Part shown: piece by piece, positions 1 through 45,485 of the stretch
Numbering within the stretch: position 1 is the first letter of the stretch
How the letters are laid out: each line of letters begins with the position of its first letter
Source: Vicinamibacterales bacterium
Lineage (GTDB): Bacteria; Acidobacteriota; Vicinamibacteria; Vicinamibacterales; UBA8438
Reading direction: 5' to 3'
Assembly (NCBI GenBank): GCA_965249175.1
Contig: OZ252227.1
Coordinates: 6,455,474 to 6,519,473 of the forward strand
Length of the DNA stretch: 64,000 nt
Translations under genes and position numbers: made by a program
The notes under the pieces: generated by a model
The model's input: the letters and a program-made list of their open reading frames with translations, nothing else
The model's database searches: none
Told to the model about the DNA's origin: nothing

Positions 1-77
1 TCGATGATCTCGCCCTCGGACGTGAGGATGCAGATTTGACTTTCTCTCTTATGGACGTCGATGCCAATATGCTCCAT
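1..77 (-). CDS. IS110-family transposase, N-terminus only (runs off the window)
   Basis: Reverse strand from ATG at 77 reads MEHIGIDVHKRESQICILTSEGEII, with the GIDVHK motif of the DEDD RuvC-like IS110 N-terminus; RBS-like GGGAG upstream. Not in the ORF track. Confidence 0.85.
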   Translation of the reverse strand, partial: MEHIGIDVHKRESQICILTSEGEII

Positions 78-165
78 GGCTGGTCTCCCTCTGTGCGCCT
101 TGAGCGCGTTTGAAAAATGTGGAGCGCAAGCTACCACGTGGGGACGACCAGCCGCTTCATCCTAT
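1..165 (-). mobile_element. Left end of an IS110/IS1111-type element inserted in the 5' part of a kinase gene
   Basis: Non-coding 78-165 has an inverted repeat (ggctggtc...gaccagcc) overlapping the RBS; kinase-homologous sequence ([15 protein letters not shown]) begins abruptly at about 166. Confidence 0.75.
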
Positions 166-2278
166 CTCCCCGACGCCTTCGCCGCTGACCCGGATCGGCT
201 CGCCCGGTTCCAGCGGGAAGCACACGTTCTCGCCAGTCTCAACCACCCCAACATCGCGCAGATCCACGGCATCGAGAAGTCGGAAGACACCCAGGCGCTG
301 GTCCTGGAGCTGGTCGAAGGCCCGACCCTCGCCGACCGGATCGCGAAGGGGCCGATCCCGCTCGATGAGGCGCTGCCGATCGCGAAGCAGATTGCCGAGG
401 CGTTGGAGGCAGCGCATGAGGCGGGCGTGATCCATCGGGACTTGAAGCCCGCGAACATCAAGGTGCGGGAGGACGGGACCGTCAAGGTGTTGGACTTCGG
501 GCTGGCCAAGGCGTTGGCTGGCGACGCGGCTGATCCTGACTTGTCACACTCGCCAACGGTAACGGCTTCTGTGGCTGGAACGCGCCAGGGCGTCGTTCTC
601 GGGACGGCTGCCTATATGAGTCCAGAGCAGGCTCGTGGGAAGCCACTGGACAAACGCACGGATATGTGGTCCTTCGGCTGCGTGTTCTACGAAATGCTCA
701 CGGGGAGGGCAGCCTTCGCCAGAGAGACGCTGTCCGACACCATCGCGAGCGTTCTGGAGCACGAGCCAGACGAGGCGGGGCTCCCAATGACAGCGCGTGA
801 GCCAGTACGCCGCCTTGTTCGTCGGTGCCTGGTGAAGGAGCGGCGAGGTCGTATCCCTGACGCGGCGATGGTGCGCATCGAAATCGATGAGGCTGATCGC
901 AGTCCGGGCCCAATGCCGCCGGAAGAGCAAGGTGCGTTTCGCTGGCTACGGTGGGCCGTTGCAGTCCTTGGCAGCGGGGTCGTCGGCGGCTTTGCCGTAT
1001 GGTTTTTGATCGCGAACAACGCGGATTCAACGCTGGCGATGCGCCAGGTACGGTTTAGTGTTTCGCTGCCCCCGTCCGAAGGCGTGTGGTCCGCTGGTTC
1101 GCTCACCATTGCAGCGGACGGATCTCGGGTAGCGTTCGTGGGAAGTGCGAACGGTACGCCCGCGCTGTATGTGCGAGATATGGATGGTCAAGAGATTCGC
1201 CCAGTGCGTGACACTGACGGCGCAGAGTATCCGTTCTTCTCGCCCGACGGGGGCTGGCTGGGGTTTTGGGTAGCTGACAGCCTCAGAAAAGTGTCACTCG
1301 CCGGTGGGCCTTCAGAGACGATTTGTAATGAATGCCGAGGACTCGGGGCCGTGTGGGCTGCCGACGGCACAATTGTCTTTGGCTCCAGCACGCAGCCTGT
1401 CTACCAGGTGTCGGCTCAAGGAGGTCGCCCGCAGGCTCTTGATGTCCAGCAGCTTGGTCAGATCTTCTTGAGAGTATCCCAGTCGCTGCCAGAGTCAGAC
1501 GCGGTCCTTGTGACAGTGCGGTACTCTGGTTCGGTGGACGGTTCAGACGTCGCCGTCCTGTCGCTTCGCACCGGCGCATTGAAAACCATCGCGCCCGGCA
1601 ACCAGCCTTACCTTCTCGACAACGGAGATCTCCTTTTCGCTCGTGAAGACTCCATCTGGTCAGTCCCGTTCGATCACGACGGCCTCACGCCGACTGGGAA
1701 CCCACGTCCCGTCCTGGAAGGGCTGCAAGTCGGCAGCAGTGGAGGCGCGCTGTTCGCCGCGTCACGACGTGGGACCTTAGCTTTTATTGCTGGCGGTGGA
1801 TCACGTGTCGGTGATTCCATCATGTGGGTCGACCGAACCGGGGGTGTCCCAGCGCCGGTCGTCGGCCAGCCAGCCCAAGCCGAAGCCTTCTTCGCTCCCC
1901 GCATCTCAAGCGACGGACGGCTTGTCGCACTTCAGGTCCTTGTTGATGGAAACCACGACCTCTGGTTCTACGACACCCTTCGTGGTACGTTCGAGCGAGC
2001 TACCGTGGCGGACGAGTACGAAGGGTCCCCAGCGTGGGCACCCGATGGCACCACACTCGCCTATACCGCCACCAATGAGCGCGCCCTGCATGTGCGGACG
2101 CTTGGCACCGTTGGAGAGGGCGAGTTACTTCTGACAAGAGAAGGGCGGCAATACCCGAATGCGTGGACGCCGGACCAGCGTCAGTTGCTGTTCAGCGAAG
2201 TACACCCTGATCGAGGTGCCGATATCCTCGTCTTCTCGATAGCGGACCGGAACGTGACGCCCGTGGTCGCCACGAACG

Positions 2279-3685
2279 CTAGCAGCCCGTGGTGAAAACG
2301 CCCTTTCGTAGGTCGAGGGGCATGTGTTCGTGACACCGTGTCATAAGGTCGAGAAACGACGAGTGCGGCAGATCTTGCGCATCTCGCGCCCACGCGGGCG
2401 ATACGAGGGTCCAGAGGCGGCCAAGATCAGCGATCAAGGCCTCGAAGACGGCGACCGCGCGGCCTTGGAGGCTCCGCGGCGTGCCGACGCCCGTCAGCTG
2501 CCGCATGAGGAGCCCAAGATTGAACCCGCAGACGTGCACAAGCACGCGCTTGAGGATGTTGGGATGCCCACGCAGATGCACCCGGCGCAGCCGCCCGGTC
2601 TCGTAGAGATGCGCGTTGGGGCGTTCGAGCAACTCGCCCCGCCGTCGCAGCAGCCGTTGCCCACGCGTGCCCCGAATGCGCCGACGGTTCGCGTACACGG
2701 CGTCGCGCGCCGCCGCCTTGCCTGTCCAGTTGCGTCGCCCGCGGTCCGGCTCCGAAACATAACTGCGCACGCCGAGCGCGGCGAACGCCACCATCGTCTC
2801 GTTACTGTGATACCCCTTGTCCCCGACGACCTCGGCGATACCGGCGCCGGCCGGCAGGACGGCTTCGACGTGGTCGGCCGCCGTGATCAGGGTCTCGACC
2901 ATCGTCGTCGTATCGCCGTCGTCGGCATCCTGCACGGTGACGCCGACGATGGCCCCCGTCTCCAGGTCCACCGCATGCTCCGCGGTGTGCGCCAAGTGCG
3001 TGCGCCCGTCCTTCAGCTTCGTGATCTTCGCGTCCGGATCCTGCGGATGCGTCCAGTCGTCGTTGGAGCCTTTCTTCTTCCGTTTCCGGTCGAACCGGGC
3101 CAGCTCAGCGCGGGTCGGCGTGACGATGCCGGACGCCTCGGCCAGCCCGGTCAGAAACGCCTCGTAGCCTTCGCCCGTGTCCCGGCGCACGATACTCCGC
3201 AATGCGGCGTTCGCTTCCAACGTCGTGGCATCGATGCCGAGGGTCCGCCCGGTCACGAGCTGGGCGTCGGCCAGTTGCTGCAGCACCCACGTGAACACCG
3301 CTTGATGGGTCTCGACGTCGATCAGGCGCCGGGTGCGCGACAGCGTCGAGTGATCCGGCGGCGCCTCGTGCAGCTCGAGGTCCAGAAACTGCCGGATGCT
3401 CAGCGAATCGGCCGCCCGCCACGCGATCGCCCGCTCCGAGTCCAGCCCTTCGAAGTAGCCGAGCATCAGCAGCCGGAAGTACCGCCCCGGCGCCAGACTC
3501 GGACGACCGACGCCGTCCGCGTAGAACGGCGCGCATTGCGCCTCGACGAACGCGTCGAAGCCCGTGTCATCGAGGATCCGATTCAATCGCTGATAGAACG
3601 GATGCGCCGCACTGCGAGGCAGGTCGCTGGTGGGAACCCACATCGATGCTTGCCGCGCCCGGCGTCGTCGTTTGCCCATCGCCAT
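2279..3685 (-). CDS. DDE transposase (IS1182-like)
   Basis: GRPS..P, SER, PDHSTLSR, IDAT, DPDA and DKGY motifs; the stop codon lies in the duplicated CTAG. Confidence 0.88.
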   Translation of the reverse strand: MAMGKRRRRARQASMWVPTSDLPRSAAHPFYQRLNRILDDTGFDAFVEAQCAPFYADGVGRPSLAPGRYFRLLMLGYFEGLDSERAIAWRAADSLSIRQFLDLELHEAPPDHSTLSRTRRLIDVETHQAVFTWVLQQLADAQLVTGRTLGIDATTLEANAALRSIVRRDTGEGYEAFLTGLAEASGIVTPTRAELARFDRKRKKKGSNDDWTHPQDPDAKITKLKDGRTHLAHTAEHAVDLETGAIVGVTVQDADDGDTTTMVETLITAADHVEAVLPAGAGIAEVVGDKGYHSNETMVAFAALGVRSYVSEPDRGRRNWTGKAAARDAVYANRRRIRGTRGQRLLRRRGELLERPNAHLYETGRLRRVHLRGHPNILKRVLVHVCGFNLGLLMRQLTGVGTPRSLQGRAVAVFEALIADLGRLWTLVSPAWARDAQDLPHSSFLDLMTRCHEHMPLDLRKGVFTTGC

Positions 3686-3750
3686 GCGCGACAGTGTAGT
3701 ACGCGGGATCGATCGTGTCGATCCCTAATAGGGACTTTCACCACGGGCTG
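2283..3750 (-). mobile_element. IS1182/IS5-like DDE insertion sequence
   Basis: Perfect 15-bp terminal IRs (cagcccgtggtgaaa / tttcaccacgggctg); CTAG duplicated at 2279-2282 and 3751-3754. Confidence 0.9.
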
Positions 3751-4165
3751 CTAGGGAAGTCGCACCCAGACTTTCTCGCGATGGCCGATGGCTCGCCTTC
3801 CAATCCGATGAGTCGGGACGGGAGGAAGTGTATGTACAGCCGTTTCCAGGTCCGGGCCGCCGAGAACTCGTTTCGGAAGGCGGAGGTGGGATGCCCGTGT
3901 GGTCTGGTGACGGTCGCGAACTGTTCTATCGGATTGGCGACAGGATGATGGCCGTCACCGTGGAGACTGAACCGCAGTTCCGAGCATCAGCGCCCGTCGA
4001 GTTGTTCGAGGGCCACTATGGGCGAACACGAGGAGGTGAAGGTTCCAACTATGATGCTTCGCCCGACGGGACACGTTTCCTCATGCTGAGTGGTGGTGAA
4101 CGGCCTTCGCAGCTAGAAGTGATCGTGAACTGGTCGAGAGCGGAGGCTACGCTGGAGCCCTAAGC

Positions 4166-5218
4166 GTGACACTGTCCCCTGGCACCACTCTCGGCCCGTA
4201 CGCCGTCACCGCCCAGATCGGCCGCGGCGGTATGGGCGAGGTCTACCGTGCCCGCGACACGAAGCTCGACCGGGACGTGGCGCTCAAAGTGCTGTCCGAG
4301 GCGTTCACGTCCGATCCCGACCGCCTGGCCCGCTTTGGTCAATCGACAGTGGCCGCAACGACAAGACGACCGCCCCCCCCAATACGCCGAACCGCGCTCG
4401 CCCTGATCCTCGCGAGCCAGTTTCTGTGGCCGGCCCTCCCCGCAGCCCAACAGTCTCGGCCCACGCTCGGTCAAGAAGGGAAAGACGCCCCCTACGTCCC
4501 GACACCACAGGTCCTCGTCAATACGATGCTCGAGATGGCGGCGGTTGCACCCACCGACGTCCTTGTCGACCTTGGGTCGGGGGATGGCCGGGTGGTCATC
4601 TCTGCCGCGCGGATTGGGGCGCGGGCGATCGGTGTCGAGCTCGACGCCGGCCTGGTGGAGCTATCGCGAATGAACGCTGCCGAAGCCGGCGTCGGCGACC
4701 TCACTGAGTTCATTGCTGCCGATCTCTTCGCGTTCGATCTCTCTCCCGCCACCGTGATCACGATGTTCCTCTTGCCCGATCTCACGCTCCGGCTCCGTCC
4801 CACGCTGTTCGCCCTCAGACCTGGCACCCGGATCGTCTCGAACACCTGGGACATGCGTGGAACAGATGACGACCCGGAAGCCCCCGGATGGGACCCGGAC
4901 CAGACGATCGTCCTCGACCCCTGTCCCGGCTTTTGCACAGCCCACCTGTGGACCGTTCCAGCCAAGGTCGGGGGCATCTGGCGTACGGGCGACGAGGGTG
5001 GCGAACTGCACCTGGAGCAGCGGTTTCAAAAGGTGACCGGTTGGCTGCGCGCCGGTGGCCAGACGATCCAAATAGAGGAGGCCCACCTACACGGCTCCAC
5101 GCTTACGTTCCACGCGGCCCGCACCGACTATCGGGCCGAGGTCGACGACTCGACGATGCGCGGCGTTGCCCGCCGGGACAACGACACCCGTACGTGGCAG
5201 TCGCAGCGTGTGCAGTGA
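4166..5218 (+). CDS. Kinase N-terminal stub (4166-4336) fused in frame to a secreted class I SAM-dependent methyltransferase
   Basis: [23 protein letters not shown] stub; then a signal-peptide-like stretch, PYVPTP and [11 protein letters not shown] motif. Confidence 0.85.
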
Positions 5219-5228
5219 CCCAATAGCC

Positions 5229-7966
5229 ATGTCTCTCAGCCCTGGCGCGCGGCTCGGACCGTACGAGGTCACGGCCCGCATTGGTGCCGGCGGCATGGGG
5301 GAGGTGTACCAAGCGCGTGACACGAAGCTGGATCGGGACGTCGCGCTAAAGGTCCTGCCTGACGCCTTCACGTCCGACCCCGACCGCTTAGCCCGTTTCG
5401 AGCGGGAAGCCAGAGTCCTCGCCTCGCTGAACCATCCGAATATCGGGCACATCTACGGGCTGGAAGAAGCCGAGGGCACCTGGTGCTCGAACTGGTCGAG
5501 GGGCCGACGCTGGCGGATCGCATCGCCGACGGGCCGATCCCGATTGACGAGGCGCTCCCCATCGCGAAACAGATCGCGGAAGCCCTCGAAGCGGCGCATG
5601 AGCAGGGGATCATCCACCGCGACCTGAAACCGGCCAACGTGAAGGTGAAGGCCGACGGCACGGTGAAGGTGCTGGACTTTGGGCTGGCGAAAGCGTTTCA
5701 GCCGGAAGCGAGTGGGGCGAGTGCGTCGGAGTCGCCGACGATCTCGTTGACGGCGGCGGCGACCCAGATGGGGATGGTGATCGGGACGGCGGCGTATATG
5801 GCACCGGAGCAAGCCAGCGGCAAGGCGGTGGACAAGCGGGCGGATGTGTGGGCGTTTGGTGTCGTGCTCTACGAGATGTTGACGGGGCAGCGCGTGTTCA
5901 GCGGAAAGGACGTGTCGCATACGTTGGCCGCGGTGCTGATGAAAGACATCGAGTGGACGGGCCTCCCTTCGCGACTCCCTGCGTCGCTTGGGCGTGTGCT
6001 GCGGCGGTGCCTCGAGCGCGACCCGAAGCAGCGCCTGCGGGACATCGGTGAGGCGCGGATCGAGTTGGGCTCCGCCGCCACCGTGCCAAACTCTGTTGCT
6101 GCACCGGTAGCGGTCAGTCCGCCGCTTCAGGTCTGGCAGCGTCCCGTTCCTGCGGCCCTCGTCGCTCTGGTTCTGGTGGCGGTGACTGGCGTCGTGGTCT
6201 GGAGCCTCTCCCAGCCCGGCGTCGTTCCTGTGGACGTGATCCGATTTGTCATCCCTGAACCCGACACCGCCACGTTCGATTTCGCCAGCTCCTATCCTGA
6301 CCTTGCGATTTCCCCTGATGGCACACAGGTCGTCTACGTAGTCCGTGCCCCGGACGGTGAGCTGCAGCTCTATCTGCGGCCCATCGACCAGCTCCGTGGT
6401 GCGCCCTTGCGCGGCGCTGAAGGTGGTCAGGCACCGTTCGTCTCACCGGACGGCGAGTGGGTCGGATTCCTTAGCTCTGACAACGTGACTCTTCAAAAAG
6501 TGTCGATCTTCGGCGGCCCGCCGGTGACGCTTGCTGGATTTCCGGACTTTATCGCCGGCGCCAACTGGGAGGGCGACGACCAGATCATCGTTGGCATGGT
6601 GCGCGGGGGCCTGTTTCGAGTGCCAGCAGGCGGAAGCGAACCCGACGTCCTCACGACCCCCGATGCCGACCAGGGTGAAACCAGCCACTTCTGGCCCAGC
6701 GTTATCCCAGGCCGACGGGCCGTGCTGTTCCAGATCGCCACAGGCGGGGCCGACGCGCCCCAGTTGGCGATCCTGGAACTCGACACGGGTGAGGTGACGC
6801 GGCTCGGTCTTACCGGAACCCAGCCGCAGTATGTGTCGACGGGGCATCTCGTGTATGCCGTCCAGGATGGGTCGGTGCGGGCGGCTCCGTTTGATGCCGA
6901 GCGCCTCGAGGTGACAGGGAATCCCGTGCCCTTGCTAGAGGACGTCGTGGTGAAGAACGTCACACGTGCCTCCAACTTCAGCCTCTCAGACAACGGGCGT
7001 TTGGTGTTCATGTCGAGTGCGGGCGGGGGCGTCGCTCAGCTGTCTTCACTGGTCTGGGTGGACCGGCAAGGTCGGGAAGAGTCGCTCGGGGACGCTTGGC
7101 AGCCTGCCGACTACGTCTACCCCCGCGTCTCGCCCGACGGCACGCGGGTGGCGGTCGGGATCCTGGAGAACGCCGCTACCGACCTGTGGGTGCTTGACTT
7201 GGCGCGCCCGGGGTCACGCTCCCGCATCACCTTTGGCGGGAACAATCTCCCCGGGGCCTGGTCACCGGACGGATCGCAGTTGGCGTTCGCCGACAGTAAC
7301 GCGGCGACAAACCGCGTGCTGTTGGCTCCCGCTGACGGCAACGGTGAGGTCGAGACGCTCCTGGATCGCGGCGAGCGCCAGTTTCCGACATCGTGGGCGT
7401 CTGACGGAAACGTGTTGGCCCTCTACATCGATCGCGCGGGGGAGACCGGGCGAGATCTCGCGATGCTCCCGATGGACGGGGACCGCACGCCGGTGCCTTT
7501 CCTGGGCACGCCCTTCCAAGAGCGCGCCGGAGCGTTTTCCCCGGACGGTCGCTGGCTCGCCTACGTATCTGACGAGTCCGGGCAAGACGAGGTCTACGTG
7601 CGCCCGGTTCCGGGTCCGGGGCAACAGCACACGATCTCGACGAATGGCGGTGCGGAGCCCCTGTGGTCACGCGACGGAACCGAGCTGTTCTATCGCCTCG
7701 TGGACCAGGTTCTGGTTGTCGCGATAGACACGGCGGACTCCTTCCGCGTGGCGGCCCCTCAGGAGCTCTTTGTAGGAGCCTACGCAGCGGACTCCAGTGG
7801 GGGGTCTCACGTGAGGAACTATGACGTCACGCCAGACGGGCAACGGTTCCTCATGGTCAAGAGGGAGACCGGATCGGCGGGGACAGGTTCAGCAGAGAGT
7901 GCTCCCGAGATCACCGTCGTCCTAAACTGGCATCAAGAGCTGCTCGAGCGTGTTCCCGTTCCCTGA
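5229..7966 (+). pseudogene. Ser/Thr kinase + TM + beta-propeller, frameshifted near 5480
   Basis: Full kinase motifs split across two frames; compared with the paralog near 43910, 7 bp (agggcgc) are missing after gagggcacc. Confidence 0.88.
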
Positions 7967-7969
7967 TCC

Positions 7970-8152
7970 ATGCCCCTCCAGCCCGGCACCACCCTCGGTC
8001 CTTACGAGATCCAAGCCCCGCTCGGCGCGGGCGGCATGGGTGAGGTCTATAAGGCCCTCGACACCCGCCTGGACCGCACCGTCGCCATCAAGGTGCTGCC
8101 CGAGCACGTCGCCGCCGACCCCGATCTGAAGCAGCGGTTCGAGCGCGAGGCC
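7970..8152 (+). pseudogene. Kinase N-terminal stub
   Basis: [28 protein letters not shown]...KQRFEREA, then unrelated sequence. Confidence 0.85.
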
Positions 8153-8177
8153 AACGGATCGACACGGAGGTTTACAC

Positions 8178-8420
8178 ATGGATAAGGATCGCCCGATCAG
8201 GTTTCTCTACCCACCGCTGTTCTTCGTGGGTTTCTTGATGTGGGCGCTATACCTCGATCCAGTTCGTGGGATGGCCGACTACCTGCCGACCGTACAAGCG
8301 GGTGCGCAAACGCAGATCAACCTCAACAACATCCTCGGAGTCTTGTGGCTGGAGGCGGGGTCCTCGTCCTAGTACTGGGGTTCTTGTTGCCTGTGCTTGA
8401 ACGTGGGTCGTTCTCCCTCG
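8178..8420 (+). pseudogene. Frameshifted or truncated membrane protein
   Basis: RBS ggagg before ATG; hydrophobic segments continue in a second frame (LVAGGGVLVLVLGFLL). Confidence 0.4.
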
Positions 8421-8456
8421 TCTCGACAAAGAATCAGCCACACAGAGACTGCAAAC

Positions 8457-8915
8457 ATGGATAGCACAGACCGCCTTGAGGTCTACCGGCAGCGTTACGA
8501 GACCTACCGGCACTTGGACCGGATCCGCTGGCAGATGTTGCAGATTGCGATTGCTGTCGGTGCGCTGGTCGTCACCTTCGGCGGACGCGGCGCAGACGGA
8601 CCCGAGTGGTGGGTAATCGGTGGCGCCGGGTGGCTCCTCTGCACACTGGCCGTCGTCATGTTGCGAATCAACGGCGGCATCACGAAGAACCAGCAAGAAC
8701 TGGCTAAGGCGGCTGTCAAGACTGGTGACGCAGGAATCCCTCCGATCGCCGACTGGTGGAAACGGTCGTCATTCTGGGTCGCCGCCTCCGTATTCGCGCT
8801 CGGTGCCGTGTGCCTCGTCCTGGCCATCGTCTCCGCTCGGTCCCAGGAGTCCCCATGCACAGAGTCTTCATCAGCTACCACCACGGGCGAGACCAGGAGT
8901 ACAAGGAACACCTAA
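8457..8915 (+). CDS. Small membrane protein with 3 predicted TM helices, candidate defence effector
   Basis: Charged N-terminal helix (YRQRYETYRHLDRIRWQ) followed by three hydrophobic segments; overlaps the TIR gene start. Confidence 0.65.
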   Translation: MDSTDRLEVYRQRYETYRHLDRIRWQMLQIAIAVGALVVTFGGRGADGPEWWVIGGAGWLLCTLAVVMLRINGGITKNQQELAKAAVKTGDAGIPPIADWWKRSSFWVAASVFALGAVCLVLAIVSARSQESPCTESSSATTTGETRSTRNT

Positions 8916-9469
8916 TCCGGCTCAACACCATCGCTCCGGTCTTCATCGACGAGTCCGTAGACACCGGTGACATCTCGGATAACCTTGACGACCAGGCGAT
9001 CCGGCAGACAATTCGTGACGAGTACCTCCGTCAGACGACGGTGACCATCGTGCTCGTTGGGCAACAGACCAAGAACCGCAAGCACGTCGACTGGGAGATC
9101 TACTCGAGCATGATCAACGGCACGGTCAACAAGCGGTCGGGCATCGTTGCCGTCCTGCTCCCCGACGCCAACCCCGACGGTTACTTCACGGCAGCGCACA
9201 CGAACGAGAAGGCGACCATCTACCCGGAGCAAGGCGACGACTGGACCACGGTGACCACGGAAACCGAATACCGGCGCCGGTACCCCTATATGCCGGATCG
9301 CATCATCGACAACCTGGTCGACCGAGACGTGAAGATCTCTGTCACCGGATGGGCCAAGATCGACGGGGGCAACTTCGACAATCTGTCCCTCCTGATCGAC
9401 AACGCGTATCACGTCAGGGAGCAGAACGAGTACGACCTCAGCCGAGCGATGAGACGGGCGGACTCCTGA
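8855..9469 (+). CDS. TIR domain protein (ThsB/MTH538-like)
   Basis: MHRVFISYHH, TVTIVLVG..T..RKHVDWEI with the catalytic Glu; RBS aggag at 8845-8849. Confidence 0.88.
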   Translation: MHRVFISYHHGRDQEYKEHLIRLNTIAPVFIDESVDTGDISDNLDDQAIRQTIRDEYLRQTTVTIVLVGQQTKNRKHVDWEIYSSMINGTVNKRSGIVAVLLPDANPDGYFTAAHTNEKATIYPEQGDDWTTVTTETEYRRRYPYMPDRIIDNLVDRDVKISVTGWAKIDGGNFDNLSLLIDNAYHVREQNEYDLSRAMRRADS

Positions 9470-9601
9470 CTGCCGAACGCCGCGGGGCACATTCCGTCTT
9501 CAATTCCCACCGACGAGACCCGTGGTGCGGCCCTCCAGTTCCTCGGCCTCCCCAAGCGTGCGACCGATCATCGAGCAGCACGGCGCCTCGAGGAGTGGAT
9601 C

Positions 9602-10138
9602 GTGAGCCAGGACCACAGGTTCGAGGATTACTACGAGCGTTTCATCGAGCCGCGCGAGCAGGTCACGTCGGAACGCGCCCCGGACTTCGCGGCAGTTCGT
9701 CCGAAGTGTCCTCAAGGCCCGACGACGCGCGTGGTCGAGAGAACCTCGCGCGTGATCGGCCGGGGCTCGGCCACCCGTCCGTCCCTGAACTCCGGGACCC
9801 GGACGTCCTCGGACCGGAAGCGTCAAGAGCTGACCGAGACGGACTACAAGCGTGCGCGATCAGGTGCTGAGGTCATCAGGCCGTTGATCAAGCTCGCCAA
9901 GAAGCAATGCGCGAGCGGTCGCAATCCCAGGCCGCAGCTCGAAGCCGTCGCGGAGAAGATGGGACCCAAGCCCCCCTCGTGCGCTGCGATCACCCAACAC
10001 TGCGTGCCAAAAAACTCCGAAGGTCGGCGTCACATGCCCCTGCGAACGGAAGAGATCACTCGTTGGATCATCTCCCAATACCTCGGCGTTGGCCTCACGC
10101 GCGCGAAACAGATCATTGCACGGCCCCGCCGGGGATAG
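9602..10138 (+). CDS. Hypothetical protein
   Basis: ORF with RBS-like gaggag; no recognisable motif. Confidence 0.4.
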   Translation: MSQDHRFEDYYERFIEPREQVTSERAPDFAAVRPKCPQGPTTRVVERTSRVIGRGSATRPSLNSGTRTSSDRKRQELTETDYKRARSGAEVIRPLIKLAKKQCASGRNPRPQLEAVAEKMGPKPPSCAAITQHCVPKNSEGRRHMPLRTEEITRWIISQYLGVGLTRAKQIIARPRRG

Positions 10139-10192
10139 ATCTAATCCGCTAAGGGATTTGTCCATCCCCTCTCACCCTTTCTAGCTCTCGTT

Positions 10193-10214
10193 TGTACTAC
10201 AGGTGTACTACAGG
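10193..10214 (+). repeat. Tandem 11-bp direct repeat (tgtactacagg x2), likely a protein-binding site
   Basis: Seen directly, in the AT-richer intergenic region upstream of the excisionase-like gene. Confidence 0.6.
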
Positions 10215-10360
10215 TTTCGGAACTGGGCTTACGATTTAGTCAGTGGACGAATTTGAGAGGAGCTGATGCGGCGACCGCCGCGTCGGACCTCTCGCAGACC
10301 CACCGACGTTGACGCGCTACGGGAGATCGACCACGCCGAAAAACGGGAGGCTAAGGATCA

Positions 10361-10567
10361 GTGAGAGCGACCGCGACCCGGCCCAACGCCAAGCTCATCG
10401 CCGTCAAGCAGGCCGAATCCGAGTTCGGACTGCCGGCGGCGCTCCTGCGTGGCCTGATCGCGCGCGGCGAGGTGGCGGCGGTCAATCCTCCACACGTACG
10501 CCGGGTGTTCATCGTGCGAGCCGACCTCGAAAAGAAGATCGAAGCGTGGAGCGTCGACCATGAGTAA
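10361..10567 (+). CDS. Excisionase-like winged-HTH protein
   Basis: 68 aa, LIAVKQAESEFGLPAALLRGLIARGEV...RRVFIVRADLE pattern, located just before the primase gene. Confidence 0.6.
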   Translation: MRATATRPNAKLIAVKQAESEFGLPAALLRGLIARGEVAAVNPPHVRRVFIVRADLEKKIEAWSVDHE

Positions 10568-10618
10568 CACGCGCGCCGACTTCCTCGCGGCGCTCTTCCG
10601 AAGCGAGCGGGAGGCTCC

Positions 10619-12697
10619 ATGAGCGCACCCACCTGGTTCGTCCGGGCTCTCACGTTGGGCTTCCAGCTCGTCTGTTACGCGGAGAAATCCAAGGGACCGT
10701 CAGGTCCCGACGGGATCGGCTGGCCACGCAAGACGGTCACGACGGTTGAAGGCTATGTCGACAGGCGTAATTGGGGCGCGCTCCTCGGCGTGGAGATCGC
10801 GCCAGGGCGCTTTCTCCACGCGGTCGACTTCGACTGGGTGCTCGGGATCCCTCTCGGGGCACGCCTCCTGCCGTCGACCGCATGTGGTACGTCGCGTCCC
10901 TCGAAGTTGGTCTCGCAGGCCCTTTACACAACGGACCGCCCCCTCGTCACGCGGCAGTTCAAGGACGTCGATGGCGCGATGCTCGTCGAGCTGCGGGGGA
11001 CCAAGGCCGACGGCTCACTCGGGTGCCAGAGCATGATCGCTGGCATCCATCCGGGCGGCGAGGAAGTCGAGCTGCGAGATGGCGCGCTCAGGCACGGCAC
11101 GGGCGACGTCGTGGAGCGGCGCGCCGCGCTCTACGCGGTGGCGTGCCTGCTGCTCAAACACCTCGGTCACCGCGGCCTTCTGCACGAGCAGCGCCTCGAG
11201 GTAGCCGGGTTACTGCTCGCGGGCGGCGCGACGCAGGACGAGGCCATCGACGTTCTGGAGGCCGTGGCCGAAGCGTCGAGTAACGACGTCCGCGACGTCA
11301 GGGCCACGGTGCTCTCGACGGCTGCGCTTCGCGAACGCGGGCAGCCGCGTAGAGGGGGGCGCGCGCTTGCGAAGGCGATCGGTGACGACGGGCCGAAGAT
11401 CGTCGCGAGGATTCGCGAGTGGCTCGGCGCGGGCGACGACTTCCGACGCACCGAGAAAGGTGTCGTCACCGCCGACCAGCAGAACGTCCGGCTCGCGCTC
11501 GAGAAGCTCGGGGTGAGGGCGGAGTGCGACCGGTTCTCGAACAAGGTCTTCGTCACGGCGCCCCCCGCGCCGCGTAGCGTCTGGAGCGACGAGCTGCTCG
11601 TGAAGACGCGGCTCCGCATCGACCGAGAGTTCCACTTCTTACCGACGAAAGACCTCGTCGACGACATCGTGCGCGACCTCGGTTGGGATCACGAGCGGCA
11701 TCCGGTCCGCGAATACTTGGACGGTCTCACGTGGGACACCACGCCGCGACTCGACGCTTGGCTCGCCAGCTATGGCGGCGCGCCCGACTCGGCGTATACG
11801 CGCGCCGTCGGTGCCCTCGTCCTGATCGCGGCGGTGCGCCGCGTGCGTCAGCCAGGGTGCAAGTTCGACGAGCTGCTGGTGCTCGAGAGCGGCCAGGGCA
11901 CCAACAAGTCAACGGCCCTGCGTGTCCTGTGCCGCGACGAGGGCTGGTTCTCCGACGATCTCCCACTGGGCGCCCGCTCCAAGGAAGTGATCGAGTCGAC
12001 GCAGGGCAAGTGGTTGATCGAGGCCGCTGAACTCGTGGGAGGTCGCGACGTCGACAAGCTCAAAGCGTTTCTCAGTCGGCAGGTGGATGGCCCCGTCCGG
12101 TTGGCCTATGGTCGCGTCTCGACGGAGGTCACGCGGCAATTCACCGTGATCGGCACGACGAACAAGCTCCAGTACCTGAAGGACGCGACTGGGGCTCGAC
12201 GTTTCTGGCCCGTTCGGATTCAGCGTTTCGACCTCGGCACTCTCCGACGCGACCGCGACCAGCTCTGGGCGGAGGCCGCGCACCGCGAGGCCGCGGGTGA
12301 CTCGATCAGGCTGGACCCCACACTCTGGGACGCCGCGGCTGACGAGCAGGAGCGCCGGCGCGACGAGGATCCATGGGAACGCGTCATCGATGAACTCGTC
12401 GAGACGATCGAGGGGGAGGAGATAGAAGGCGACGACCCGAACGTCGTGCCAGTCAGCATGATCTGGGGCCGACTCGGCGGCGTTGAGTATCACGACAGGA
12501 GCTCGTCGGCCCGCGTCGCCGTCATCATGCAACGCCGCGGATACACGGACAAGCGCAAGCGTCGGCCCTCGAGGGGGGCCACCCCGTGCTGGTGTTGGGT
12601 GAAGGGCGAGACGCAGGAGGAGCTCGACCTGGGCCGTGCCACCCGTTCCGAGCGCGAGGACGCAGATCTGCCCGCAACGCAATGGAGCCCGTTCTGA
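10619..12697 (+). CDS. Primase-helicase with a VirE/VapE ATPase domain
   Basis: HPVREYL..L.WD..PRL, PGCKFD..LVLESGQGTNKST Walker A, GTTN..YLKDATGARRFWP; the N-terminus resembles a bifunctional primase/polymerase. Confidence 0.85.
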   Translation: MSAPTWFVRALTLGFQLVCYAEKSKGPSGPDGIGWPRKTVTTVEGYVDRRNWGALLGVEIAPGRFLHAVDFDWVLGIPLGARLLPSTACGTSRPSKLVSQALYTTDRPLVTRQFKDVDGAMLVELRGTKADGSLGCQSMIAGIHPGGEEVELRDGALRHGTGDVVERRAALYAVACLLLKHLGHRGLLHEQRLEVAGLLLAGGATQDEAIDVLEAVAEASSNDVRDVRATVLSTAALRERGQPRRGGRALAKAIGDDGPKIVARIREWLGAGDDFRRTEKGVVTADQQNVRLALEKLGVRAECDRFSNKVFVTAPPAPRSVWSDELLVKTRLRIDREFHFLPTKDLVDDIVRDLGWDHERHPVREYLDGLTWDTTPRLDAWLASYGGAPDSAYTRAVGALVLIAAVRRVRQPGCKFDELLVLESGQGTNKSTALRVLCRDEGWFSDDLPLGARSKEVIESTQGKWLIEAAELVGGRDVDKLKAFLSRQVDGPVRLAYGRVSTEVTRQFTVIGTTNKLQYLKDATGARRFWPVRIQRFDLGTLRRDRDQLWAEAAHREAAGDSIRLDPTLWDAAADEQERRRDEDPWERVIDELVETIEGEEIEGDDPNVVPVSMIWGRLGGVEYHDRSSSARVAVIMQRRGYTDKRKRRPSRGATPCWCWVKGETQEELDLGRATRSEREDADLPATQWSPF

Positions 12698-12719
12698 TGC
12701 CCCCCCTACATGGATCTGC

Positions 12720-12798
12720 TTGGAACGGTTGGAACAGTCGGAACAGAGCCCGAAAAGCCCCCCTCGATCCGTTCCGAGCAGCGTTCCAGGCGTTCCGA
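12720..12798. repeat. Putative replication origin (inverted GGAAC/GTTCC iterons)
   Basis: ttggaacggttggaacagtcggaacag facing cgttccgag..cgttccaggcgttccga, immediately after the primase gene. Confidence 0.6.
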
Positions 12799-12995
12799 CC
12801 AGACGGCCCCCCTCGAGCGTCCGCCGCACCCCAGTCCGCTCTGCCAAGCGACCGCCCACGGTCCTCGAGCCCCGCCGCGCAGCGGGCCTGGAAACCGCTG
12901 ACACCGAACTTACACAGGCCGCTCGAGAGCTTGGAACCATTGGGGCAAATGAACGTGTGCCGGTCCCCACAACCGCCGCCTTCGGAGCACGACGC

Positions 12996-13526
12996 ATGGT
13001 AAAACCGGTTGACGGGAGCCAGACGCCTGGACTCGACACGGCGTCGACGGCCCCGGAGCACGCGACGTGCACCCGCTGCGGTCACGTCGGCCCCGCGGAG
13101 GGCAAGGGGCAGTGTGCGCAGTGCAAGTGCTGGCTGGGTGGCAACCTGGCCCGTCTGACTCACGGCGTCAAGCTGTTCGAGCGCCGGGGCGAGCTTCAGC
13201 CAGAGATTCGACAGGCGCTCAACGCGTTCCGAGACCAGCTCATCAGCGACCAGGGCGGCGAAGAGGAGCTGACAGCCGCACGTGCTGGCCTGATCGACAG
13301 GCTCGTGAGCGCACAGGCCGTGTTGGTGCTCCTCGAGTCTGACCTGGCCGCACGCGGGATGCTCACCCCGCGCGGCAGGCTGCGCACGACGTATGGCGCC
13401 TGGTTGTCCGCCCTCGATCGGTTTCAGCGACTCACCAAGGATCTCGGACTCGAGCGACGCGCCGTCAAGGTGCCGACCATCGAGGCGTATCTGGCACAGA
13501 AGGAACAGGTGCGCGATGCGAGCTGA
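12996..13526 (+). CDS. Putative terminase small subunit with an N-terminal Cys cluster
   Basis: CxxC...CxxC, GNLARLTHG motif, helical core ending in KDLGLERR; lies upstream of TerL. Confidence 0.55.
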   Translation: MVKPVDGSQTPGLDTASTAPEHATCTRCGHVGPAEGKGQCAQCKCWLGGNLARLTHGVKLFERRGELQPEIRQALNAFRDQLISDQGGEEELTAARAGLIDRLVSAQAVLVLLESDLAARGMLTPRGRLRTTYGAWLSALDRFQRLTKDLGLERRAVKVPTIEAYLAQKEQVRDAS

Positions 13527-13670
13527 CCGCCGCGACTTTTTCACTGGCAGGGGGGCCAAGGGAATACTCCGGGGCTCAGAACTTTTGTGGCCATTTTCAA
13601 CCCTCGTCTCTCACTCCACGCCCCGCGATGACCATACCGCGCGTTGCGTTGTACGCCGGAGGCCGATCCC

Positions 13671-13916
13671 ATGCCGCGACCACTGAATCTCCCAAACGCT
13701 CGAGTCGCCGCGTGGACCCGCGGCACCGGCGACGTCGAAGAGTGTCCGACCACGATGCGCGTGAGCGTCCATCACGCGATCGTCCGACACCCGCGGACAC
13801 AGATCCCCGGTCACTCACTCGAGGTGGGTGACCTCCTGCACGACGGAACCACCTGGGTCAGCCTCGGTGAGGCGTCTGCCGCGTGGGTGGAGAGGATGCT
13901 CGATGACGTTGGTTGA
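13671..13916 (+). CDS. Hypothetical protein
   Basis: RBS ggagg; overlaps the TerL start. Confidence 0.5.
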   Translation: MPRPLNLPNARVAAWTRGTGDVEECPTTMRVSVHHAIVRHPRTQIPGHSLEVGDLLHDGTTWVSLGEASAAWVERMLDDVG

Positions 13917-15354
13917 GGCGATGTCGGATCCGTTGATCCTCGGCCGCGGCTTCGACGGACCCTCGTGGGAGCCGTGGAAAGATGTCGCGCGGGTCCTCGG
14001 CGGAGGCGACGCGCCGAGGAACGAGGATCTCGTGCGTCGATGCACGGGTGGCCGGCCGCTCCCGACGGATCCGGTTCGCGAAGCCTTTCTGATCTGCGGC
14101 CGTCGCGCGGGCAAGAGCTACTTCACGGCGGCGCTGGCGACCCATCAAGCGTGCCTCGAGCGTTACGTGCTCAAACCGGGCGAGATGGGGACATTGATGG
14201 TGCTCGCGGCGGATCGGAAGCAAGCGCGCGTGCTCATGCGCTACATCAAAGCGAACTTTCAGAACTCAGAACTCCTCTCGCACATGATCGCCCGCGACAC
14301 GCAGACCGAGATCGAGCTGTCGAACGGGATCACGATCGAGATCACGACGGCCAACTATCGCACCTTGCGCGGCTACACCGTCGTCGGCGCGATTTGCGAC
14401 GAACTCGCCTTTTGGAGATCAGAAGACTCGAGCAATCCTGATACTGAGGTGCTCAACGCGCTGCGGCCGGCGATGGCGACGGTGCCGAATGCCCGCCTGC
14501 TCTGCATCAGCTCCCCCTACTCAAGACGCGGCGAACTGTGGAAGGCGTATCAGCGCGACTTCGGCAAAGACGGCGACGTGCTCGTGTGGCAGGCGGCGTC
14601 GACGGTGATGAATCCTCAGCTCCCACAGTCGATCATCGACGCGGCCTATCAGAAGGATCCGGTCTCCGCGGCGGCGGAATACGGCGCCGAGTTTCGAGGC
14701 GACCTCGAGACGTTCCTGATACCTGAGGCGGTGGAGGCGTGCGTCACAGCTGGCCTGAGAGAAAGGCCCGCTGCGCAGGGCGTCGCGTATCACGCCTTTC
14801 TCGACTTCGCGGGCGGCAGCGGCAACGACTCCGCAACCCTGGCCATCGCCCACGCGGAGGGCGACACCCAGGTCCTCGACGTCGTCCGCGAGATTCGACC
14901 GCCGTTCTCCCCACAGCTGGCGTGCGAGGAGTTCGCGGCGACGCTCCACTTGTACGGCGTCAGTGCGGCAACCTCCGACAAGTGGGGCGGACAGTTCCCC
15001 GTCGAGCAGATGCGGAAGTTCGGGGTCCGACTGGAACCGTCCGCGCGACCGAAGAGCGACCTCTATCTGGCCCTGCTCCCGCTGGTGAACAGCGGGGCCG
15101 TCGCGCTGCTCGACCACGCACGGCTCCTCGCGCAGCTCGTCGGTCTGGAACGTCGGACCGGCCGCGGGCGAGACCACGTCGACCACGCGCCGGGGGCGCA
15201 CGACGACGTGGCGAACGCGGTAGCCGGGGCGCTCGCCACGTCGCCGGGGCCGACGATCCGGGTCCGCTCGTTCCTGAGCGCGGACGAAGCGAACGTGCTC
15301 CAACGCACGCAAGCCGCGGCGATCGTCGCTCGATCAGATCTGCTTTTTCGTTAA
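13903..15354 (+). CDS. terL: Terminase large subunit
   Basis: Walker A GRRAGKS, Walker B AICDELAFW, coupling motif ISSP, nuclease acidic residues in FLDFAGG..D and HDDVANA. Confidence 0.88.
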   Translation: MTLVEAMSDPLILGRGFDGPSWEPWKDVARVLGGGDAPRNEDLVRRCTGGRPLPTDPVREAFLICGRRAGKSYFTAALATHQACLERYVLKPGEMGTLMVLAADRKQARVLMRYIKANFQNSELLSHMIARDTQTEIELSNGITIEITTANYRTLRGYTVVGAICDELAFWRSEDSSNPDTEVLNALRPAMATVPNARLLCISSPYSRRGELWKAYQRDFGKDGDVLVWQAASTVMNPQLPQSIIDAAYQKDPVSAAAEYGAEFRGDLETFLIPEAVEACVTAGLRERPAAQGVAYHAFLDFAGGSGNDSATLAIAHAEGDTQVLDVVREIRPPFSPQLACEEFAATLHLYGVSAATSDKWGGQFPVEQMRKFGVRLEPSARPKSDLYLALLPLVNSGAVALLDHARLLAQLVGLERRTGRGRDHVDHAPGAHDDVANAVAGALATSPGPTIRVRSFLSADEANVLQRTQAAAIVARSDLLFR

Positions 15355-15550
15355 CAGGGGAGGATTCACAATGAAACATGTGCCCTTCGACAAACCCAGG
15401 GCGGGCCTCACTCGTGATCTTCCCGGCGACCCTCCGGGGCCCGCGTCACGACGCTCGCGTCGGAAGACGCGGGTGCGATCACCCTCGACGAGACCACCGC
15501 GTCGATCGGGTTGCTCCGGCTCGCCGCAGCGCGGCGGAGACGACGCGACG

Positions 15551-16156
15551 ATGACCGATCCGGTGCGGGCCATGCGCGCGGCACAGTGCGTCGTGTTGCG
15601 AGACGAAAACGGGCGCGAGGTGAGCGCGCGGCTCTACTGGCAGTCGCCAGACATCGACGCCCGGGTCCTCCGGGTCGGCGACCGGCGGGTATGGTTTCCC
15701 CGCGGCTTGCCGCGGCGGTGGAGCACGTTCCTCTGGCGCGTGAGGAACCACGCGGGCTTCTGGCTGTCGGACGACCTGGCGCCGGCGTGGGGCGACCTGC
15801 GACGGCGCCTGGACGCGTTTCCGCAGGTGCGGCCGTGCCCGCGGCTCGTCTGGTCCGGCCTGCCGTGTCGCCTCGCGCGGGTGGATGCCGTGCTCCGGCG
15901 GTCGGCGATCGCGTGGCGGCTCACGTTCGTCCGTGAGACCACCGATCCGGACCAGCGGGCGACGCTGTCGATGACCGTCGCGCGCGGCACGCTCTGGAGC
16001 TGGCCGCGCGTATACCGGATGGGGCGCCGCCTCGGCCCCGGTGCGCTCGGGCCGTACAACCTGAGTCCGGACGAGTGGAACGACATCTTGGTTACGGCCA
16101 TGGCGCTCGGTCGACCGGACGCCGACGTTGCGGCACGCGAGGGAGGCGCACCATGA
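15551..16156 (+). CDS. Hypothetical protein (start uncertain, possibly 15371)
   Basis: Trp/Arg-rich ORF following TerL. Confidence 0.45.
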   Translation: MTDPVRAMRAAQCVVLRDENGREVSARLYWQSPDIDARVLRVGDRRVWFPRGLPRRWSTFLWRVRNHAGFWLSDDLAPAWGDLRRRLDAFPQVRPCPRLVWSGLPCRLARVDAVLRRSAIAWRLTFVRETTDPDQRATLSMTVARGTLWSWPRVYRMGRRLGPGALGPYNLSPDEWNDILVTAMALGRPDADVAAREGGAP

Positions 16157-16192
16157 CGACGCACGTCGCCCTTCTCCGCCGGACGGGACGGC

Positions 16193-16220
16193 TTGATCTA
16201 CGTATTCTAACGTCTATACT
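16193..16220 (+). promoter_or_regulatory. Sigma70-like promoter
   Basis: TTGATC-16 bp-TATACT followed by GGAGG and the ATG at 16233. Confidence 0.55.
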
Positions 16221-16232
16221 CTTGGAGGCCCC

Positions 16233-16406
16233 ATGACGCGGCGGCGCAAGTACGCGTTCTACGCCGACGAGGACCAGCTCGCGGGGCTGAAGCGCATCAA
16301 GGCACGCGACGGGGTGCTCGAGAGCGAGACGATCCGCCGCGCGCTCGACGCGTGGCTTCGCAAGAAGGGCGTCGTAAAAGTGGACCGTAAGCGCAAGCGT
16401 TCTTGA
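16233..16406 (+). CDS. Ribbon-helix-helix (CopG-like) regulator, 57 aa
   Basis: MTRRRKYAFYADEDQLAGLKRIKARDGVLESETIRRALDAWL; below the ORF-track cutoff. Confidence 0.75.
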   Translation: MTRRRKYAFYADEDQLAGLKRIKARDGVLESETIRRALDAWLRKKGVVKVDRKRKRS

Positions 16407-17964: not shown

Positions 17965-17976
17965 GAAAGTCTCAAT

Positions 17977-36854: not shown

Positions 36855-37547
36855 ATGTCCCTGGCGCCCGGCTCATCCCTCGGCCCGTATGAGATCCGCT
36901 CCCAACTCGGCCAGGGCGGGATGGGCGTCGTCTACCTCGCCCAGGATCCGCGCCTCAAGCGCCAGGTCGCCATCAAGCTCCTGCCGCCGGACCTGACCCG
37001 CGACGAGATGGCCAAGCAACGATTCCTGCAAGGAGCGCAAGCGGCCTCGGCCCTGGACCACCCGAACATCCGCACGATCTTCGAGATCAACGAGACGGCC
37101 GATGACGTTTCTACAGAGACGGTGCTGCGCGGCGGGAGACGGCGACCAGAACGCACGAATGGGCACGACCTCCTGGGTCGAGACGAATCACTCACGGTCG
37201 ACCTGACGACGCGGGCGGACACAAGAACAGGCGGCTGCAAGCCGCGCGAGCTCGCCCGGATGCCGTTCTCGAACCTTCAGGATCTCAAGGACGAGGACGG
37301 CAACTGGCTCCCGATGTCGCAATGGCCCCGTGAGGCGGCCGCGGCTGTGGCTCGGGTTAAGGTTCGGAAGGAAAACCTCACGGCCTGCGACGGCGTCCAG
37401 GAGGTCGTCGTCGACGTCCAGATGTGGAACAAGAATCAGGCGATCGATTCCGCGTTGAAGCACCTGGGGATGCTGATTGAGCCGGTCGAGCACGGCGGAG
37501 ACATCACGATCCGATGGCAGACCGAGGAGGAAGCGAAAGGATCGTAG
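36855..37547 (+). pseudogene. Chimera: kinase N-terminal stub (to about 37106) joined in frame to a terminase-small-subunit C-terminal fragment
   Basis: [13 protein letters not shown]...SALDHPNI, then VSTETVLR...ELARMPFS...DEDGN...W...K..A...LKHLGM..VEH.G. Confidence 0.7.
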
Positions 37548-39046: not shown

Positions 39047-39130
39047 ATGGCCCTAGAAGTCGGCTCCCGCCTCGGCCATGACGACGTCACCGCCCTCATC
39101 GGCGAAGGCGGCATGGGGCAGGTCTATCGC
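39047..39130 (+). pseudogene. Kinase N-terminal stub
   Basis: [28 protein letters not shown], then unrelated sequence. Confidence 0.8.
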
Positions 39131-43891: not shown

Positions 43892-45485
43892 CTCGACCAG
43901 TTCGAGCACCAGCGCCCTGGTGCCTTCGGCTTCTTCCAGCCCGTAGATGTGCCCGATGCTCGGATGGAGATATTGTCAAATGTTGTGGATCGGTCATCAG
44001 CGTGATCAGGCGGCCACCTTCCGATCTCCCTCGTTGTTTCGCTCCTGCTGTACCCCGTCAATGAACGTCACGCCGGCGCGGACGAGTGGCAGCAGATGCG
44101 CGCCATTGAGCCGACGCCAGCGCTGCTGTGCCATCTCGAGCAGCTTGTAGGCCATCAACAGGCCCTTGGTGCGCGAGCCCGCGCCTTTGGTCACGCGCTG
44201 CCGGAGTCGGACCGTGGCGAATGGCGACTCGATGACGTTGCTCGTGCGCACGTGCTGCCAATGCTCAGCTGGCAGGGCAAAGTGCGTGAGGAGGCGGTCG
44301 CGGTCTGCGTCCAGGCACGCCGCCGCCTTCGGGTACTTGGCCTCGTACTCGGCGATGAAGACGTCCATGGCCTCCTCGGCGTGTGCCCGCGTCTCGGCGT
44401 ACATGATCTCGCGGAGCGCGCGCTTCGCTTTCGGCTGTAATCGCTTTGGCAATTTGTCGAGCACGTTGCCCATCTTGTGACACCAGTCGCGGAGCTCTCG
44501 CGTGTCCGGCCACACGTCGCGCACGGCCGCCCAGAAACCCAGGGCGCCGTCGCCGACCGCCCCCACCGGGGCCCGCATGCCGCGCCGCTGGAGGTCCCGC
44601 AGCACCGTCGCCCAGCTGTCGGTGCTCTCGCGGTAGCCGTCCTCCAGGGCCACGAGCTTCTTGGTCCCATCGGGCCGTACGCCGATGATCACCAGCGTAC
44701 AGAGCCGATCGTCCTCGAGCCGGATGTTGAAATGGATGCCGTCGACCCACACGTACACGTAGTCACGATCGGCCAGGTCCCGCTGGCGGAACCGCCGGTA
44801 GTCCTCTTCCCACACCGCCGTGAGGCGCGCGATGTTGGTCGCGCTGAGGCCGGCCGCGTCATCCCCCAATAGCACCGGCAGCGCTTCGCGGAAATCGCCC
44901 GTCGACAGACCGCGCAGATAGAGGATCGGCAGCACCTCCGCCACCTTGGGCGAGCGACGCATGTAGGGGGGCAAGATCCGACTCGTGAACCGCTCCCGCT
45001 GGCCCGCGCCGTTGACCCTTTTGTCGTTCACCCGAGGAGCATGCACCTCGAGCGTACCTGCCCCGCACGTCACCTTCCGCGCCTGGGCCCGACCATTCCG
45101 AACGACCAGCCGGCGTCCCCGCGCGTCCCGCTCCTCGCCGTGGGCCTCGATGTACTGCCCGACCTCCACCGCCAGGGCCGTCATCAACATCCGCCGGGCT
45201 CCCTCCCGGGCCAGCTCGTCCACCGTCTGCGCACCGCGCTCTTCCGGCGGAACTTCGTTGTCTGCTCCATCGTTGTCGAGTACCTTCAGCATGGGTGGCG
45301 GCTCCTTTCACCGGCCTGCCAGCCGGAGTTTTCGCGTTGCTCACGCGAAAGGATACGCCGCCTTCTTCAGACTGCCGATCCACAACTTCTGGCTATATCT
45401 CGTGCTCGGATGGTTCAGCGAGGCAAGCACCTTGGCTTCGCGCTCGAAGCGGGCCAGGCGATCGGGATCGGCCGTGAATGCCTCG
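43892..45485 (-). pseudogene. Internal kinase fragment interrupted by IS256 copy 3
   Basis: [49 protein letters not shown]. Confidence 0.85.
43967..45401 (-). mobile_element. IS256-family element, copy 3 (transposase 44006-45292)
   Basis: 1435 bp; flanked by (a/g)tgctcggatg duplication; one SNP near the left IR. Confidence 0.95.

Follow-up and report, generated by a model that had tools for sequence, protein, structure and literature searches.

Kinase gene starts as probable homology anchors for the exchange of variable genes in a Vicinamibacterales genome

Integron arrays are runs of co-oriented, diverse accessory genes led by ribosome-binding sites (RBS), with order and content that vary between relatives and with IntI, attI and attC as the parts of the system. 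In the minimal mobile elements of Neisseria, homologous recombination swaps cassettes through the conserved coding sequences on either side. Here we describe gene arrays in a 64,000-nucleotide (nt) stretch of the genome of a Vicinamibacterales bacterium (assembly GCA_965249175.1, contig OZ252227.1, positions 6,455,474 to 6,519,473; hereafter the window), in the rest of that genome and in its relatives. In these arrays, unrelated genes (cargo) stand behind truncated 5′ ends (stubs) of an expanded family of Hanks-type protein kinase genes. Co-oriented variable cargo is common to these arrays and integrons, but no attC-like repeat, fixed crossover or linked integrase was found here. The Neisseria elements are single loci with intact flanking genes, whereas the anchor here is dispersed and multicopy.

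In the PeSL (promoter/stem-loop) cassettes of the T4-type phages RB49 and phi1, repeats with promoters bound variable genes, and cargo is excised or inserted by homologous recombination from one repeat to another; no dedicated integrase was identified, PeSLs were likened to integrons and mini-circles were detected by inverse PCR (PMC2839356). The present arrays share the promoter-bearing repeat at the borders (judged here by −10-like boxes) and the variable crossovers inside the repeat. A PeSL, however, is a non-coding promoter and stem-loop of defined anatomy in a phage, whereas the repeat here is a predicted promoter with the coding 5′ end of a signalling gene, of variable length and on a bacterial chromosome; by eye and without folding, no conserved dyad was evident in the upstream sequences. 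With rhs tip displacement (PMC2935791), the arrays share a conserved coding anchor, arrays of dissociated pieces and possibly a reach across taxa. The rhs anchor fuses variable tips in frame to a core, whereas the anchor here is an N-terminus followed by unrelated whole genes, and reading continues in frame for more than 300 nt beyond the junction in 24 of 218 stubs. Nor does the cargo resemble cassettes of toxin tip and immunity gene: the Pfam matches of 67 cargo proteins were mostly enzymes, with one HNH. Homology-facilitated illegitimate recombination (HFIR; PMC6382021) integrates foreign DNA through a RecA-type anchor, combined with joining over a microhomology of a few bases. It is a laboratory transformation mechanism, whereas here it may act on a genome-wide repeat network. 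By analogy, the arrays appear to work like PeSL shuffling and rhs tip displacement and not like an integron. Among open-access full texts, we found no description of such stub arrays.

Our preferred reading, to which we assign a probability of about 0.65, is that the kinase promoter and the first 50 to 350 bases of the gene act as shared homology anchors, at which units bounded by stubs are exchanged by general recombination, both from array to array and across genera. What is demonstrated is that stubs exist, that they are 5′-biased and co-oriented, that alleles are mosaic and that one junction recurs under unrelated flanks. An initial annotation of the window had proposed that the conserved N-lobe coding sequence of the kinases is a portable recombination site that works without a dedicated att repeat; in so far as the kinase 5′ region behaves as a movable boundary at which cargo and kinase bodies recombine, it is supported. 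Its picture of a fixed site, or of an attL/attR-like pair, is not: stub ends are scattered, crossovers fall at nt 20 to 140 of the kinase gene and beyond, and a stub is no more similar to the next kinase start (identity 0.659) than to any other (0.661). With none of 106 pairs at or above 95% identity, both a target duplication and a similar attL/attR pair were rejected.

The source genome (G000; handles beginning with G denote genomes, those with L loci) is one 6.64-Mb contig of 66.6% G+C. The glycine-rich-loop kinase motif occurs 106 times in G000, 72 in G001, 122 in G013, 87 in G066 and 41 in G008, whereas most of the 85 family genomes, complete ones included, have no more than ten; the counts may be too low for fragmented assemblies. 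The kinase expansion is patchy across the family; expansion of kinase paralogs as such is known from Solibacter (PMC3174227). A DNA profile was built from the 29 open kinases returned by a strict motif search of G000, and kinase pieces were located genome-wide by BLAST. Stubs were mapped in six genomes, namely G000 and loci of five relatives. A motif at nt 55-78, as well as clusters, guided the choice of loci in the relatives, so that only G000 is near-unbiased. Stubs below about 50 nt go undetected, and the genes flanking stubs, called with a purpose-made codon model, are approximate.

Evidence for exchange at kinase starts was provided by at least five locus pairs in which the same junction and cargo lie behind different stub alleles and unrelated upstream DNA (L035/L029, L019/L051, L023/L022, L076/L064 and G000 positions 1093918/1665484). 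Identical junctions below unrelated upstream DNA require a crossover inside the stub. The unit shared by L019 (G013) and L051 (G008), from different genera, is 1.57 kb long and 96% identical and extends from one stub into the next, so that both of its ends are inside kinase starts. Furthermore, low-copy segments shared between genomes had 13 of 50 ends in a kinase 5′ zone (p = 0.001 at an expectation of 10%), and a second set had 20 of 58 (33 of 108 in sum), as against 1 of 112 and 3 of 56 (4 of 168) for multi-copy controls resembling insertion sequences (IS). The kinase 5′ zones make up 5-6% of the loci.

The methyltransferase of the window is the best-sampled cargo; 42 related loci were retrieved and the 29 strongest matches were examined. 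Distant homologs have no adjoining kinase start, relatives occur with and without kinase flanks, and the close relatives bearing the gene are mostly labelled Vicinamibacterales or Acidobacteria. Its upstream junction lies at nt 109 (G008, G001, L131), nt 172 (G000, L130) or nt 264 (G006, L105). In the first lineage, the junction at nt 109 retains the native −10-like box, whereas the junction at nt 172 has removed the box and left an in-frame fusion. The second lineage has its junction at nt 264, formed at a microhomology of 14 nt; downstream of the gene in this lineage stand stubs of 81, 115, 119 and 196 nt, which are different alleles with different sequences beyond. Identity change-points at the methyltransferase loci were placed at nt 20, 21, 42, 50, 56, 57, 62, 71, 77, 86, 107 and 140, at scattered short conserved blocks; the switch at nt 20-21 is common to five loci and may stem from one or two events. 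The kinase domain behind the methyltransferase is common to G000 and L130 only up to about nt 714, and the divergence past this point would be compatible with swapping of sensor parts. Separately, when L131 (labelled Bryobacterales) was compared with L012, 1.66 kb across two stubs and the methyltransferase proved identical to G008, which represents either a very recent transfer between orders or a binning error. Within G000, positions 4551010 and 764409 (minus strand) share a 650-nt unit that runs from near a conserved kinase C-terminal motif to inside a kinase start; the tail motif may also be a crossover point.

The 136 kinase starts of G000 comprise 48 long, 14 interrupted and 5 internally deleted genes and 69 stubs. 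In G000 and the relatives' loci together, 218 stubs were mapped, or 212 once the six adjoining an IS110 element are set aside. These 212 have a median length of 139.5 nt (quartiles 102-198) and end between nt 49 and nt 662; G000 alone contributes 65, of which 58 are no longer than 350 nt. In five additional genomes, 20 loci contained 74 starts that were short and 7 that were long, IS interruptions not being sorted out. In 20 loci from other families of the order, 28 of 61 starts were short, several of these being in-gene insertions and not stubs. Uniformly scattered breakpoints, which the initial annotation would have taken as a sign of plain decay, were not found: stub ends are strongly 5′-biased (Kolmogorov-Smirnov p = 5e-17 against a uniform distribution over nt 60-700). 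Beyond this smooth bias there is no end cluster, as the largest 7-nt window holds 14 ends (null mean 14.3, p = 0.66), and a fixed breakpoint was accordingly rejected. It had also been claimed that the two stubs of the window ending at 4336 and 8152 break in the same motif. They end at codon 57 and at codon 61-62, respectively, and two neighbours of such lengths are not remarkable, with 36 of 212 stubs ending within nt 160-195.

Neighbouring kinase starts are read from the same strand in 76 of 78 cases, and cargo is co-oriented with the stub in 122 of 160 cases downstream and 109 of 126 upstream. Cargo types include hydrolases, glyoxalases, SnoaL, P450 and PQQ dehydrogenases. Kinase starts are often preceded by a stop within 20 nt or by a −10-like box, the latter being found before 47 of the 144 stubs without a nearby stop, compared with 16 of 5000 random windows. 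Such hexamers are strongly enriched ahead of 437 kinase starts, where they are predicted promoters. Differences between stubs and intact alleles are mostly silent (1802:612; among intact genes, 410:118). The suggestion that stubs supply translation starts is correct for the 24 with in-frame reading, including that of the window methyltransferase, and not for the majority; judged from these predicted promoters, promoter supply would be at least as common.

The window illustrates this arrangement. Its first 165 nt (1..165, minus strand) are the left end and transposase start of an IS1111-type IS110 element, inserted at a CT core at kinase codons 43/44; the first 129 nt of kinase 1 lie upstream of the window (G000:C1:6453995-6454123). 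The kinase 1 body thus severed from its 5′ end (166..2280, plus strand, as are the following features unless noted) comprises Pkinase, transmembrane (TM) and PD40 propeller parts, and gives way to a DUF772/DDE transposase element (2279..3752, ends approximate, minus strand) before the C-terminal part reaches its stop (3753..4163). The first gene, 166-4163, is thus one kinase split by both the IS110, just before 166, and the DUF772 element (at about 2280-3750). A 172-nt stub follows (4166..4337), with a short microhomology at its join to the leader of the class I S-adenosylmethionine (SAM) methyltransferase (4349..5218), with which it is in frame. The common reading frame is 4166-5218, and the N-terminus of the cargo looks signal-peptide-like by eye. 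Kinase 2 (5229..7966; kinase, TM and propeller), the start of which moves together with the methyltransferase, had been described as a full copy; at about 5480 it is 7 nt short relative to G008 and would be frameshifted there. Next is a stub of another subtype (7970..8155, about 186 nt), which ends about 22 nt before an RBS-led open reading frame (ORF); its cargo (8178..9469) comprises ORFs of 64 aa and 152 aa (no Pfam match) and a ThsB TIR-like gene (8855-9469). As first annotated, the three kinase starts follow the preceding stops within 2-10 bp, with gaps of 2 nt (4163/4166), 10 nt (5218/5229) and 3 nt (7966/7970).

The stubs annotated at 4166, 7970, 36855 and 39047 are all genuine. That at 36855..37104 is 250 nt long with a −10-like box, and the DNA upstream of it precedes a long kinase in G001; that at 39047..39130 is 84 nt long. 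The supposed stubs at 43892-45485, conversely, are an internal kinase fragment (model nt 133-279; 43892..45484, minus strand) split by a Mutator-family IS. Among the neighbouring genes, the stub at 36855 continues into a 95-aa ORF (in the region 37105-37547) that is phage-like by eye and has no Pfam match. Past the ThsB TIR-like gene, the region 8178-18000 holds VapE-like primase, terminase and tyrosine integrase genes and is possibly a satellite-like element with a defence module. The region 45478-58144, with serine recombinase pieces and tyrosine integrase, portal, capsid and terminase genes, reads as a second prophage- or satellite-like element.

A candidate parent was found for 13 junctions, but several of these proved to be IS ends or diverged versions of a single junction. 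In the informative cases the overlaps measured 14 nt (L014/L104), about 11 nt (L032/L029), about 5 nt (window 4336), about 3-5 nt and 0-1 nt (L038). L032 and L029 have a segment in common, with the kinase junction at its left end in one copy and at its right end in the other, an arrangement suggesting that junctions arise one at a time. We infer that they are made by microhomology-guided joining of the HFIR type. In three junction pairs, the longer stub has the more eroded leader (offsets of about +13, +64 and +133, worked by hand); drift of junctions in register was set aside, three pairs being too few to count. In kinase genes of G028, G058 and G057 (L153:4931-5049 and 11482-11634, L161:7706-7638 and L163:5201-5103), inserts of about 70-150 nt occur at the same point, model nt 299-316; at least one is palindromic, and they are possibly a miniature repeat that targets a coding site.

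We propose the following sequence of events. Through a deletion or illegitimate join, some other gene would acquire a kinase 5′ end in front of its leader or N-terminus or, alternatively, a kinase start behind its stop; such joins would use microhomologies of 3-14 nt and often displace the gene's own promoter. With a kinase start on each side, the gene would become exchangeable by crossovers in the conserved blocks of the starts, more likely by linear double-crossover replacement than through a circle. Further joins would then shorten the stubs, of which about 50 nt or more would be needed to recombine, producing the observed hump in length. Transformation and phage are candidate routes of transfer; ComEC is encoded in G000.

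Several results weigh against exchange at shared anchors. Both ends lay in kinase zones for only 9 of 54 shared segments (3 of 25 and 6 of 29), and 75 of 108 segment ends lay outside them, from which it follows that the islands are busy in general and that other exchange is also ongoing. Among short assembled contigs no circle or empty site was seen, the joints there being paralog-like. Paralogs are no less identical over nt 300-660 than over nt 0-300, so homology alone cannot account for the 5′ bias, which would need selection (for promoter capture or short leaders) or serial trimming. Adjacent starts are not enriched for like subtypes (mean rank 0.48), which argues against integration by a single crossover or a circle and favours linear replacement. 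MutS, present in 30 of 31 genomes, should hinder homeologous exchange at 65-85% identity, and the same count led us to reject MutS loss as a cause. Frameshifts affect 61 of 211 stubs, and at least one stub was made by deletion, the full gene of G001 L065 corresponding in G000 (6349080) to a 158-nt stub and the last five codons. Additionally, the genomes are not mutually independent, and the relatives' loci were picked by kinase motifs.

Some of these observations would be expected if the stubs were products of decay in a large paralog family within IS-rich islands, with deletions taking away kinase bodies, with mosaics produced by gene conversion and by the duplication or transfer of blocks, and with kinase starts not being preferred points of exchange. 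In keeping with this, 10 internal kinase deletions were found (the pair just described among the supporting cases), only 29 kinases were open by the strict search, IS insertions are many, frameshifted stubs are frequent and most shared-segment ends fall outside kinase zones. However, 5′-anchored fragments outnumber 3′-anchored ones by 153 to 36, a gap inflated by kinase subtypes with other C-terminal domains, and only 5 of 212 stubs run on into a kinase tail. Decay would also leave unexplained the crossovers inside stubs that the identical junctions require, and the kinase-free native methyltransferase loci, which indicate that a kinase start was added to the cargo at either end. We consider decay on its own unlikely.

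Exchange at shared anchors might, at the other extreme, be the work of an integron-like, community-wide cassette network of the Vicinamibacterales that has neither att sites nor an integrase. The kinase promoter and 5′ end would here be a maintained universal adapter by which accessory genes are captured, expressed and reordered across genera, with cassettes in circular form and perhaps with breaks or annealing directed to it by a host factor. This seems to us doubtful. More likely than a dedicated machine is a system that organised itself as a side effect of a promoter-bearing sequence present in many copies throughout the community.

Site-specific recombination by a dedicated recombinase at an att-like site in the N-lobe is very improbable. 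Co-oriented, RBS-led cargo gives the arrays an integron-like look, the switch at nt 20-21 recurs in five methyltransferase loci (perhaps from one or two events), and one true site-specific event exists, the IS110 insertion at nt 129. An attC-core-like heptamer (searched without an attC covariance model) lies near 11 of 209 junctions, 5.9 being expected. Nevertheless, stub ends are unclustered, and a motif search at the junctions returned nothing beyond RBS-like words. Oriented 27-bp sites of the form TGTCG-N17-CGACA were rejected as array borders: one of 36 in G000 lies within 1.5 kb of a kinase piece, and 5 occur in 1.77 Mb from relatives. An association with a specific recombinase, proposed initially as a check, was not found either. 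IntI (TIGR02249) passed the cut-off in 10 of 61 genomes, among which the array-rich complete genomes do not appear and none of G000, G001, G008, G013, G028, G050 and G060 is listed. G000 has only sub-cut-off IntI pieces; two broken integron-integrase-like loci (G000:C1:917581-918445 and 6324379-6325238) both score below the family cut-off. Ku, RecT and IntI showed no pattern with the arrays, nor does MutS follow them, and no tested recombinase tracks them.

The IS110 element merits separate description. G000 has 16 full copies of 1515 nt at 99.9-100% identity, of which 15 sit in kinase codons 43/44 and one elsewhere, together with one partial copy and four variants at 77-83%; insertion is at a CT core, and nt 129 is the sole sharp site seen in the kinase. 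Besides window 1-165, it was noted at 21 other places in G000 and also in G001, and the kinase body usually resumes beyond it. The element has a 346-aa ORF, presumably of IS110 on the basis of its N-terminal motif, a 386-nt 3′ end, a long right end and inverted repeats in sub-terminal position. Part of the right end corresponds to the target sequence: in two variants with different kinase targets, this 8-nt stretch differs accordingly. The stretch reads as a putative guide and the two variants as a natural retargeting pair. Sub-terminal inverted repeats and a long right end are traits of the IS1111 group of IS110 bridge recombinases (PMC11208160), and the element at 1-165 is like that group in its repeats, right end and target-matching stretch. 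Its target, however, is a conserved coding sequence, and it explains one site and not the stubs. Of 61 genomes searched with an exact 14-nt pattern of its end, which distant variants would escape, 6 gave a match, whereas G008, G013 and G006 gave none. On this ground it was ruled out as the maker of stubs and is instead a parasite of the kinase repeat. At G000:C1:1108019-1105718 (minus strand), the kinase parts flanking an IS110 variant are of different subtypes, which suggests recombination across or by the IS.

A further explanation is that stubs are inserted copies of the 5′ end of a reverse-transcribed kinase transcript, or of the promoter region. Stubs are 5′-anchored with decaying length, and all 5 array-rich genomes examined encode reverse transcriptases (array-rich genomes only were covered). 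A transcript copy would, however, lack the upstream −10 box that many stubs retain, and a non-exhaustive search found no stub between genes that are adjacent elsewhere, making this origin highly unlikely. Misassembly at a repeat is practically impossible, even though the source sample contains kinase 5′ ends as repeats of very great depth: the 4336 junction is crossed without a single difference by a contig of the probable source sample (X1 record 2, 4264-4488), the same junction is present in another genome (L130), and related ones occur in G008, G001 and L131. This junction is therefore genuine and not an assembly error. The methyltransferase is also present on contigs from a seawater run and from a marine run, and one of these contigs extends into the following kinase start. 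At 8152, spanning contigs have just 28 letters on the left, below the threshold of 31. Because 9 of 103 family genomes match the cargo after 8152, and these distantly and in part only, no empty site can be read there.

Under the reading that kinase starts are shared homology anchors, integron-like arrays might arise without an integrase or an att repeat, a high-copy, promoter-bearing gene start spread across genera being sufficient. In practice, annotation will present stubs as pseudogenes of kinases or as spurious kinase fusions, and short-read assemblies will lose these arrays. More broadly, the arrays bear on how flexible islands are built up and exchanged in uncultured Acidobacteriota.

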